Assembly: GCA_034666565.1 (NCBI GenBank)
Contig: JAXDLN010000119.1
Coordinates: forward strand, 204,162 to 268,161
Direction of reading: 5' to 3'
Length of the DNA stretch: 64,000 nt
Source: Chloroflexota bacterium
GTDB lineage: Bacteria > Chloroflexota > Dormibacteria > CF-121
Shown in pieces: positions 35,198 through 36,453 of this stretch (its first letter is position 1; the number at the start of each line of letters is the position of its first letter). The notes beneath the pieces are model-generated. The model ran no database searches, was not told where the DNA came from, and saw nothing but the letters and a program-made list of their open reading frames with translations. The translations under genes were made by a program, and so were the position numbers.

Positions 35198-36133
35198 CTA
35201 GGCTGGGCTGCCTGCAAGCTCAAAAGCGGTGGCGAGACGGTCGACCTCACCCCTGCTCATGCCAGCGTCACGCGCGACTGAAGCCCAGCGAGCGACGACG
35301 CTGCGGACTCCCGCAATAAGTTGGGCAGCTTGCGCGCTTGTCAGACGATAAAGCGGCGCCGTTTCGCGAACAATCTCTAAATCCGGAATCCGCACGTTGC
35401 CATTCAGCGCAAGACTGTGTTCAAGCTTGTCCGGTGACGGATTGATGTCAAACGCCGGCGCGAGGTGCCATCCCTTCGGGGTGCGTAAGAAGCCGTGGTT
35501 GCGAAGATGGTCGTCTCGGTTCGCCGTGAGCACGTTGAACACGACGCGGCGATAGAGCTGCTGAAGGTCGTCTGCGATCGCCGCGGGATCGCCGAGCTCT
35601 CCGATCGCCCGCGCGATGTCGAGATAACTCGCCTCGTCGTTGTCGCGCTTACCGACTAGCGTCATCGCCGATGCATAGAGGCGCCGCCCCACACCCTTGC
35701 GATCGAAGCGGCGCGCGGAGAACGTTCGGTAGCTCGATCCCAGCTGTAGGGCTTTGATCTCAGGCACATCGATTTGTGCATCGCCGGCCAGGTGCGCCAC
35801 GACGTACTCCCAACCCCCCACGTCGTATCGATCCTCCCGGGAAGGGAACTTGGCGATCCAGAGGGCGTCATCGGCGCTCAGGAAATTGGCTTTCGGACGT
35901 GCCCCTCCCAGTGAGCTCCCTGGCGCAATAAGCATGGCGATCCATTTTTCCTCTTCACTCGCGCTCGGGGGAAGACCCTTCTCCACCTCGCCCGCCAAAT
36001 GCTCGAGGTCGCGCAGACGAGTACCTGGCGGTACGGAGATCTTTTCGTTATCGAGAAACGCTCCATCCCTCGGCCGTGCCAAGCGTAGTGCCCCCATCCG
36101 CGTCTCATCATTTAACCGACCAAGAAGTCCCAA
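35198..36133 (-). CDS. hipT: HipT-like serine/threonine kinase toxin (HipA N-subdomain-2 plus kinase core, lacks N-subdomain 1)
   Basis: Gly-rich loop LIAPGSSLGGARPK and catalytic VVFNVLTANRDDHLRNHGF. Start is TTG at 36133 (22-nt overlap with hipS) or ATG at 36097. Confidence 0.75.
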   Translation of the reverse strand: MGLLGRLNDETRMGALRLARPRDGAFLDNEKISVPPGTRLRDLEHLAGEVEKGLPPSASEEEKWIAMLIAPGSSLGGARPKANFLSADDALWIAKFPSREDRYDVGGWEYVVAHLAGDAQIDVPEIKALQLGSSYRTFSARRFDRKGVGRRLYASAMTLVGKRDNDEASYLDIARAIGELGDPAAIADDLQQLYRRVVFNVLTANRDDHLRNHGFLRTPKGWHLAPAFDINPSPDKLEHSLALNGNVRIPDLEIVRETAPLYRLTSAQAAQLIAGVRSVVARWASVARDAGMSRGEVDRLATAFELAGSPA

Positions 36134-36453
36134 TCATCTAGGTGGCGCTGCTTTCGACTCTCCCGTCGAGCGGCCAATGCCTCCCTTCGTTCGAGCAGGG
36201 TGCGTCCCCAGCGATCCGGCGCAGCATCCGTAAAGAGACCTGGCAGCGTGGATGGATACTGCTCTCCTTCATAGAGCGGAAGCGACGGATCGAGGGGAAA
36301 CGAGCGACGGTCGCCAATCCATTCGAGCGCATATGCGAACGAGATCACACTTTTCGACCCTGACCGCTCACGTCCCAGTGTCCCGACGATCCGCCGTGGG
36401 CCGAGCTCCGGAGCATCGAGATGTACAGCAACCTGCTCGCGGCCGTTAATCAT
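36112..36453 (-). CDS. hipS: HipS-like protein (stand-alone HipA N-subdomain-1 / Couple_hipA domain)
   Basis: 113 aa: VISFAYALEWIGDRRSFPLDPSLPLYEGEQY...FTDAAPDRWGRTLLERRE...DDWDFLVG. ATGA overlap with hipB. Confidence 0.7.
   Translation of the reverse strand: MINGREQVAVHLDAPELGPRRIVGTLGRERSGSKSVISFAYALEWIGDRRSFPLDPSLPLYEGEQYPSTLPGLFTDAAPDRWGRTLLERREALAARRESRKQRHLDDWDFLVG

Follow-up and report, generated by a model that had tools for sequence, protein, structure and literature searches.

A hipBA locus next to ssrA in a Chloroflexota bacterium with a probable one-nucleotide frameshift in the toxin gene hipA

The stretch of DNA analysed here (the window, 64,000 nucleotides) contains, on its minus strand, a hipB gene followed by two reading frames that together cover a hipA toxin gene. 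The hipB gene (36450..36770) encodes a helix-turn-helix antitoxin/repressor of 106 residues with Pfam matches to HTH_31 (E=4e-9) and HTH_3 (E=2e-6); the NCBIfam models matched the open reading frames only weakly, couple_hipB for hipB among them. The stop codon of hipB and the start codon of hipA share a 4-nt ATGA overlap in the same orientation, and a Shine-Dalgarno-like GAGGA sequence is located 7 nt upstream of the hipA ATG. The 5' fragment of hipA (36112..36453, minus strand), designated hipS in the first-pass annotation, comprises codons 1-113 and a premature TAA and ends with CGC CAC CTA GAT GAT TGG GAC TTC TTG GTC GGT TAA (RHLDDWDFLVG*). Its product was assigned to the HipA N-terminal domain Couple_hipA (PF13657, E=1e-8), of which it covers only the model positions 8-78 of 99. 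The 3' part (35198..36114, minus strand), previously termed hipT, encodes the kinase core in a different frame. This open frame extends over 35198-36133 in the -1 frame and opens at the TTG at 36133, (M)GLLGRLNDETRMGALRL, whereas its first in-frame ATG, at 36097-36095, corresponds to Met120 of the intact protein and would give a product of 299 residues. The two frames thus overlap by 22 nt when counted from the TTG at 36133, or are separated by about 14-15 nt from the stop codon to the ATG at 36097. The minus-strand reading and the Pfam matches agree with the earlier description of the three reading frames, and both of the proposed starts and the 22-nt overlap are indeed present in the sequence. 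We found no GGAG/GAGG core within the 20 nt before the ATG at 36097, which is preceded by GAUGAGACGCGG, and no Shine-Dalgarno core before the TTG at 36133. The kinase frame matches HipA_C (PF07804, E=8.5e-43), and the alignment with HipT and HipA structures located the Gly-rich loop GSSLGGARPK, the catalytic DDHLRNHG, and the Mg-binding (P)AFD motifs, all three of which (GSSLGGARPK, DDHLRNHG, and PAFD) are invariant across the family alignment. In public records, the locus is listed as two separate "HipA" proteins.

Upstream of hipB, the hipBA promoter together with a putative HipB operator (36774..36814, minus strand) consists of a -35 hexamer TTGACA, a 17-nt spacer, and a -10 hexamer TATTCT, bracketed by the perfect 9-bp inverted repeat ACATAGAAT/ATTCTATGT. 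It is the sole promoter-like site within positions 35000-37000, with 10 of 12 consensus matches. The hipB ATG follows the -10 hexamer after 8 nt, so the mRNA is probably leaderless. Both repeat arms and both hexamers are kept in a 93%-identical relative (contig L005), whereas indels abound in the DNA immediately before them, and HipB may repress the promoter by means of this palindrome. The tmRNA gene ssrA (36856..37222, minus strand; ARAGORN, tag ANRQLAYAA; Rfam RF00023, 155 bits) resides directly upstream of the hipBA operon, with 85 nt from its 3' CCA to the hipB start codon, and smpB is located at 37287-37757. A check for an island integrated at ssrA did not find a second copy of the tmRNA 3' end within the window. 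The same arrangement of ssrA and hipBA occurs in L005.

We searched 5.8 billion proteins with the kinase reading frame as the query and examined the best 120 homologues. The best match, at 99%, is a 418-residue protein (P0001, MEA2668497.1) from a Chloroflexota MAG (GCA_034666605.1), encoded on a contig of 3,691 nt (L001). This contig aligns with positions 33617-37300 of the window at 99.65% identity, with 12 substitutions and one indel in an alignment of 3,685 nt. The sole indel lies in hipA, where L001 reads GGTCGGTGTAAATGAT and the window GGTCGGT-TAAATGAT. The G of the intact allele, GGTCGGT[G]TAAATGAT, has been lost between 36115 and 36114 (36114..36115, minus strand), which changes GGT GTA AAT GAT (G V N D) to GGT TAA AT, replaces codon 114 (GTA, an invariant Val) with an in-frame TAA, and shifts the remainder of hipA to the -1 frame. 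The lesion is therefore at the stop codon itself and not a few codons upstream, where the first-pass annotation had assumed it; the junction reconstructed there, DDWDFL-LGRLNDETRMGALRL (LGRLNDE...), is not the ancestral one, as the intact allele encodes ...DDWDFLVGVNDETRMGALRL. The hipB sequence shows no differences from L001, and A42T is the sole difference between the 113-residue product and residues 1-113 of P0001. In the intact protein, the Pfam match of the N-terminal domain spans the break, with residues 21-115 covering model positions 8-89 of 99. Whereas Couple_hipA and HipA_C occupy separate frames in the window, they are joined in one polypeptide of 418 residues in L001/P0001, an allele 99.65% identical, which makes the window a disrupted HipBA member. 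Of the two possibilities that had been left side by side, a HipS/HipT pair and a hipA split by one indel, the comparison with L001, which differs by one G, bears out the latter. The G is also present in L005, in which hipA is an intact frame of 418 codons.

The diverged relatives point in the same direction. HipA_C was found in all 120 best homologues, about 112 of which are proteins of 404-476 residues, nearly all of 409-433, with both Couple_hipA and HipA_C. The close homologues with 99, 85, 83, 78, and down to about 60% identity are single HipA proteins of 413-420 residues, and the hits following the 99% one (85, 83, 78, 75, and down to about 61%) almost all have 409-433 residues and both domains. 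Among 72 related loci in species-representative genomes, the closest ones (identity of at least about 43%) contain one continuous segment covering residues ~1-411, and the closest fused loci include members of Solirubrobacterales, Burkholderiales, Terriglobia, and Verrucomicrobiia. The residues invariant around the break in the family alignment are W108, D109, L111, V114, D116, R119, G121, and A122. The split itself is confined to contigs of at least 99.7% identity and was seen in none of the diverged relatives compared. A single continuous frame in relatives had been named beforehand as the sign of a frameshift, and this is what we found. Relatives with the identical two-frame arrangement, proposed as the opposite sign, exist as well and carry the same deletion, but with an identity of at least 99.7% they belong to one species-level population with the window and show a real segregating allele rather than an old conserved architecture.

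Several other candidates for short forms were considered. P0126 (299 residues), which appeared to be a second split lineage, is a gene-caller artefact, as its contig L005 has the intact 418-residue frame, and P0012 (329 residues) has an intact frame whose start was miscalled. The apparent short forms at L005 and L080 are likewise merely miscalled starts. Two loci, L079 and L081, have independent frame changes near residues 51-72, indicating that the breakage of this toxin gene is recurrent and not confined to one site.

For the natural boundary between HipS and HipT, we identified genuine hipBST loci by tblastn with the HipT segment of E. coli O127 in Aliivibrio fischeri pCG103-32 and on a plasmid of Legionella adelaidensis. 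Their HipS and HipT were translated and aligned with E. coli HipA and the present family. The E. coli HipA sequence used was confirmed over residues 10-67 against a PDB alignment, and in this multiple alignment the collinearity with ...FDLLSEIGRDSVGAVTL of E. coli HipA that had been pointed out earlier holds. HipS ends with ...NDTLGMLIQNGNNLIGAVRLERFDN (also given as ...LIGAVRLERFDN) in Aliivibrio and with ...HDYFGQLIIVGQDVVGAVTIEEVI (also ...VVGAVTIEEVI) in Legionella. Both ends contain D..L...G.D..GAVxL, so the whole motif is a property of HipS, and the stretches GAVRL/GAVTI/GAVTL align with MGALRL of E. coli HipA. This is consistent with the crystal structure of HipS (PMC10627512), in which residues 1-52 form four strands, residues 53-94 three helices, and residues 95-102 a fifth strand. 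The first reading frame of the window, ending with ...DFLVG, falls 12 residues short of the end of N-subdomain 1 and does not include the aligned VNDETRMGALRL segment, which is present in the genuine HipS proteins of Aliivibrio and Legionella and in HipA. The hipS-hipT overlap is 1 nt in O127 (PMC6581861), 1 nt in Aliivibrio, and 4 nt in Legionella. The suggestion of a genuine HipS/HipT pair thus does not hold, since the relatives are fused and the boundary falls inside N-subdomain 1 instead of after it as in true HipS. The description of the locus as a snapshot of how HipBST arises is only loosely apt, as the natural boundary lies 12 residues further downstream than the cut.

Trp65 of HipS from O127 is a bulky inhibitory residue (PMC10627512), located in the helix unit opposite the Gly-rich loop. 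The corresponding tryptophan of the present family, W82 (PDRW), is invariant and aligned with PEGW of Aliivibrio HipS. As W82 is common to the whole fused family, it does not discriminate for membership in HipBST. An AlphaFold2 model from a 24-sequence family alignment had a mean pLDDT of 63.8, with values below 50 at residues 41-123; the model of the N-terminal domain is unreliable, and we gave no weight to the strand predicted at residues 123-126. A phmmer search of the PDB with the whole protein returned only Shewanella HipA, weakly, and a search with the N-terminal profile returned only E. coli HipA (E=0.25) and no HipS chain.

We conclude, with a probability of roughly 0.85, that an ordinary hipA gene is present in the window as a real frameshifted allele, most likely with loss of function. 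The ancestral locus would be a canonical two-gene hipBA module, in which the helix-turn-helix HipB is followed by a HipA Ser/Thr kinase of ~418 residues. On the deletion allele, ribosomes would terminate after Gly113 and release an N-subdomain-1 fragment without its last β-strand, and little or no kinase core would be made, any synthesis of it depending on inefficient reinitiation, so that the allele would be a toxin-null variant. With HipB and its autoregulated promoter still intact, the toxin would effectively be lost and the repressor kept. The deletion allele is best explained as a young pseudogene that segregates in the population, and the sister strains that still have the intact gene suggest an ordinary, recently inactivated toxin gene.

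An unlikely alternative is that the split is nascent and functional, the 113-residue fragment acting in trans on a core re-initiated at the ATG at 36097. The locus would then be a living intermediate from hipBA to hipBST, in which, equally doubtfully, the core would donate the fifth strand in trans. An origin of hipBST by splitting of hipA has been proposed in the literature (PMC6581861, PMC8262856), and the sizes of 113 and 299 residues resemble those of HipS and HipT (102-103 and 310-345 residues). The allele persists on two haplotypes from at least two samples, both pieces are otherwise undamaged with all catalytic motifs, hipB and the promoter are unchanged, and the ATG 15 nt past the stop codon could permit some termination-reinitiation. 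The invariant W82, aligned with the PEGW motif of HipS, in which Trp65 is inhibitory (PMC10627512), would also fit. However, the fragment has lost through the cut the invariant VND..R.GA motif along with the fifth strand found in every genuine HipS (PMC10627512), the ATG at 36097 has no Shine-Dalgarno core, and the coupling by a 1-4-nt hipS-hipT overlap (PMC6581861) is absent. No diverged relative shares the arrangement, and the frameshifts of the relatives are at unrelated positions, as predicted by random decay.

The substitutions since the deletion also speak against a functional split, as all of them are nonsynonymous. Within the near-identical cluster, polarised with L005, hipA has four substitutions, none of them synonymous: the haplotype of the window has T220A and E273D, that of L006 has P67Q, and the intact L001 has A42T. 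Between L001 and L005, the long-term dN/dS amounts to 0.21. Three nonsynonymous changes out of three on the deletion haplotypes have p ~0.42 under neutrality and p ~0.06 under the long-term constraint, from a small count, and may hint at a relaxed constraint on the deletion-bearing hipA. The intact L001 lineage, with one nonsynonymous and no synonymous change, weakens the argument for relaxed selection.

It is very unlikely that hipA is intact in the organism and that the G is missing through an error in the consensus, even though single-base indels are the most frequent assembly errors and the base call is known here from assemblies. The exact 113- and 299-residue products of the window are found in three assemblies, namely a 364-kb JGI contig (3300044832, from which the window derives; 100% identical), the Logan assembly of SRR24887263 (100% identical), and a 397-kb NCBI MAG contig, and the same deletion is present in L002/L003, L004, and L006. 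The contigs of JGI 3300044832, Logan SRR24887263, and the NCBI MAG perhaps derive from one library. Since these assemblies may thus go back to a common set of reads, the independence comes mainly from L006 (JGI 3300060356), a 1.7-kb contig from a different sample, which has the same deletion on a haplotype differing at 3 of 1,124 positions. Against a consensus error, the base call is identical in three different assembly pipelines, it recurs in this other sample and haplotype, and the deletion site GGTGTAAA contains no homopolymer. Moreover, the deletion in hipA is the sole frame-breaking indel within a gene when the window is compared with L005 over ~8 kb, and no other frame-breaking coding indel was found over 3.7 kb against L001; the remaining indels are intergenic or, with 9 nt, in frame. 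A pattern covering both alleles, GGGACTTCTTGGTCGGT N{0,1} TAAATGATGAGACGCGGATGG, had no matches in metagenome_contigs and genome_contigs, which are collections without these samples. Judged from the assemblies, the deletion is thus best taken as a real allele that segregates together with the intact one. The least credible alternative is programmed recoding, by which a -1 ribosomal frameshift or transcriptional slippage would yield a low level of full-length HipA as a means of regulation: although the kinase frame is shifted by -1 from the frame before it and shares 22 nt with it, we rejected it, as the junction (C GGT TAA ATG) has no slippery X XXY YYZ heptamer, as had been noted earlier, and no homopolymer longer than AAA, and the two-frame arrangement is absent from all relatives outside the near-identical population and is therefore not a conserved recoding device.

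Interpreted as a frameshifted hipA, the locus is wrongly annotated both as HipBST and as two separate "HipA" proteins; it is a hipBA module with a frameshifted toxin gene, and it cautions against naming frameshifted hipA genes HipS and HipT. It provides a clean and datable case of the decay of a toxin gene among wild Chloroflexota, in a population whose intact and broken alleles differ by 0.35%. With this pair of alleles as a natural reagent, one could examine whether HipA still assembles when it is cut near the boundary of N-subdomain 1. This question touches on the proposed origin of HipBST by splitting, of which the locus itself is no demonstration; a nascent split, if true, would be a direct experimental handle on the transition from hipBA to HipBST.

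Among the known systems, the locus shares with HipBA of E. coli K-12 (HipA of 440 residues, PDB 3DNT/2WIU) and Shewanella oneidensis (PDB 4PU3) the gene order, a helix-turn-helix hipB followed by hipA, as well as the overlap between the stop codon of hipB and the start codon of hipA. Its ancestral product is, as in HipBA, a single polypeptide composed of Couple_hipA (N-subdomain 1) and the HipA_C core, with the Gly-rich loop and the catalytic and Mg-binding motifs, and its palindrome-flanked promoter would be suited to autoregulation by HipB. E. coli HipA is only remotely similar, with profile E-values of 1e-7 for the core and 0.25 for the N-terminal domain, and the intact HipA of this locus is ~20 residues shorter. 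Unlike E. coli HipB, the HipB found here has no C-terminal Trp, and unlike E. coli HipA (PDSP), the N-terminal domain of the family has an invariant Trp (PDRW). The most obvious difference from HipBA is the 1-nt deletion that breaks hipA in this strain.

The resemblance to HipBST of E. coli O127:H6 (PDB 7AB3-5) and Legionella pneumophila (Lpg2368-2370, PDB 7VKB/7WCF/8EZR) is superficial and lies in the layout: a helix-turn-helix gene, a HipA-N-like frame of ~100 residues, and a kinase-core frame of ~300 residues. Legionella HipT(Lp), with E=2e-13, is somewhat closer to the kinase core than E. coli HipA, with E=1e-7, and the Trp of the family aligns with the PEGW motif of HipS. Both the HipT-like score of the core and the HipS-like Trp are family traits, and the locus is not HipBST by virtue of them. 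Genuine HipS runs to or past the GAV(T/R)(L/I) strand, whereas the 113-residue frame ends 12 residues earlier, and in place of an overlap of 1-4 nt there is either a gap of ~14-15 nt to the ATG or an overlap of 22 nt to the TTG. Unlike the split of HipBST, which is kept across genera, the split here occurs only in a population of at least 99.7% identity, with fused sisters.

Frameshifted or pseudogenised toxin genes of chromosomal toxin-antitoxin loci offer a close parallel. As in those genes, a single-base indel hits the toxin while the antitoxin/repressor is intact, the lesion is polymorphic among close strains, and independent lesions occur in relatives (L079 and L081). The present allele agrees with them in all essentials, its one curiosity being a cut near, though not at, the natural HipS|HipT boundary. 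Several hipBA clades are without an experimental member (Gerdes et al., 2021, PMC8262856), and the hipBA module described here comes from one of the many HipA lineages that are still uncharacterised.

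Upstream of hipB, on the minus strand, lies a sigma-70 promoter of near-consensus sequence (TTGACA, 17-nt spacer, TATTCT), with the two 9-bp arms of a perfect inverted repeat, ACATAGAAT / ATTCTATGT, on either side of it (window 36774-36814). Because the hipB ATG begins 8 nt downstream of the -10 hexamer and the repeat brackets the promoter, the sequence suggests a leaderless hipB mRNA and a putative HipB operator overlapping the promoter. Both the promoter and the repeat are kept in L005, the 93%-identical relative, despite the indel-rich DNA immediately upstream. This stretch, the 40-odd nt between the putative operator and the 3' CCA end of the tmRNA (window 36814-36856; L005 3659-3733), is strongly divergent with many indels, and the tmRNA and the hipB promoter on either side of it are conserved between the window and L005.

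An island integrated at ssrA is without support here, since the 64-kb window contains the tmRNA 3' end only once. ARAGORN additionally called a permuted 'tmRNA*' with the tag ARMDWRPSLVSPRSVASAL across hipB and the hipA 5' fragment (window 36178-36950, minus strand), which is almost certainly spurious, because Rfam matched the standard tmRNA (36856-37222) alone in the window and not the permuted form.

Independent frame changes in the N-terminal region of hipA, near residues 51-72, were observed in two more distant relatives with 64-66% identity, L079 (about 1517-1672/1666-2763) and L081 (about 2370-2585/2519-3610), which may represent real pseudogenes or metagenome-assembly errors. [quoted passage not shown] Short 'HipA' database entries alone therefore do not indicate split genes. 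All four hipA substitutions among three near-identical haplotypes, namely the window, L006 (the contig sharing its deletion) and the intact contig L001, are nonsynonymous (window 36330, 35797 and 35636; L006 position 21), with no synonymous change, a sample too small for a firm conclusion; the long-term dN/dS of hipA against L005 is 0.21.

When the fused HipA family profile (A1) was searched against the PDB, the kinase core matched HipT of Legionella (E=2e-13) and of E. coli O127 (E=3e-8), followed by HipA of E. coli K-12 (E=1e-7) and of Shewanella (E=2e-6). Both HipT structures thus outscore both HipA structures in this profile search.

In the N-subdomain, the Trp of the PDRW motif (W82 of the hipA 5' fragment, codon at window 36208-36210) is invariant in the fused family (alignments A1/A4), and E. 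coli HipA carries PDSP at this position. The same alignments match PDRW with PEGW of the Aliivibrio HipS. In the HipS of E. coli O127 this region holds Trp65, which is the inhibitory residue (PMC10627512). The N-subdomain of the fused family may make HipS-like contacts with the Gly-rich loop, in cis.
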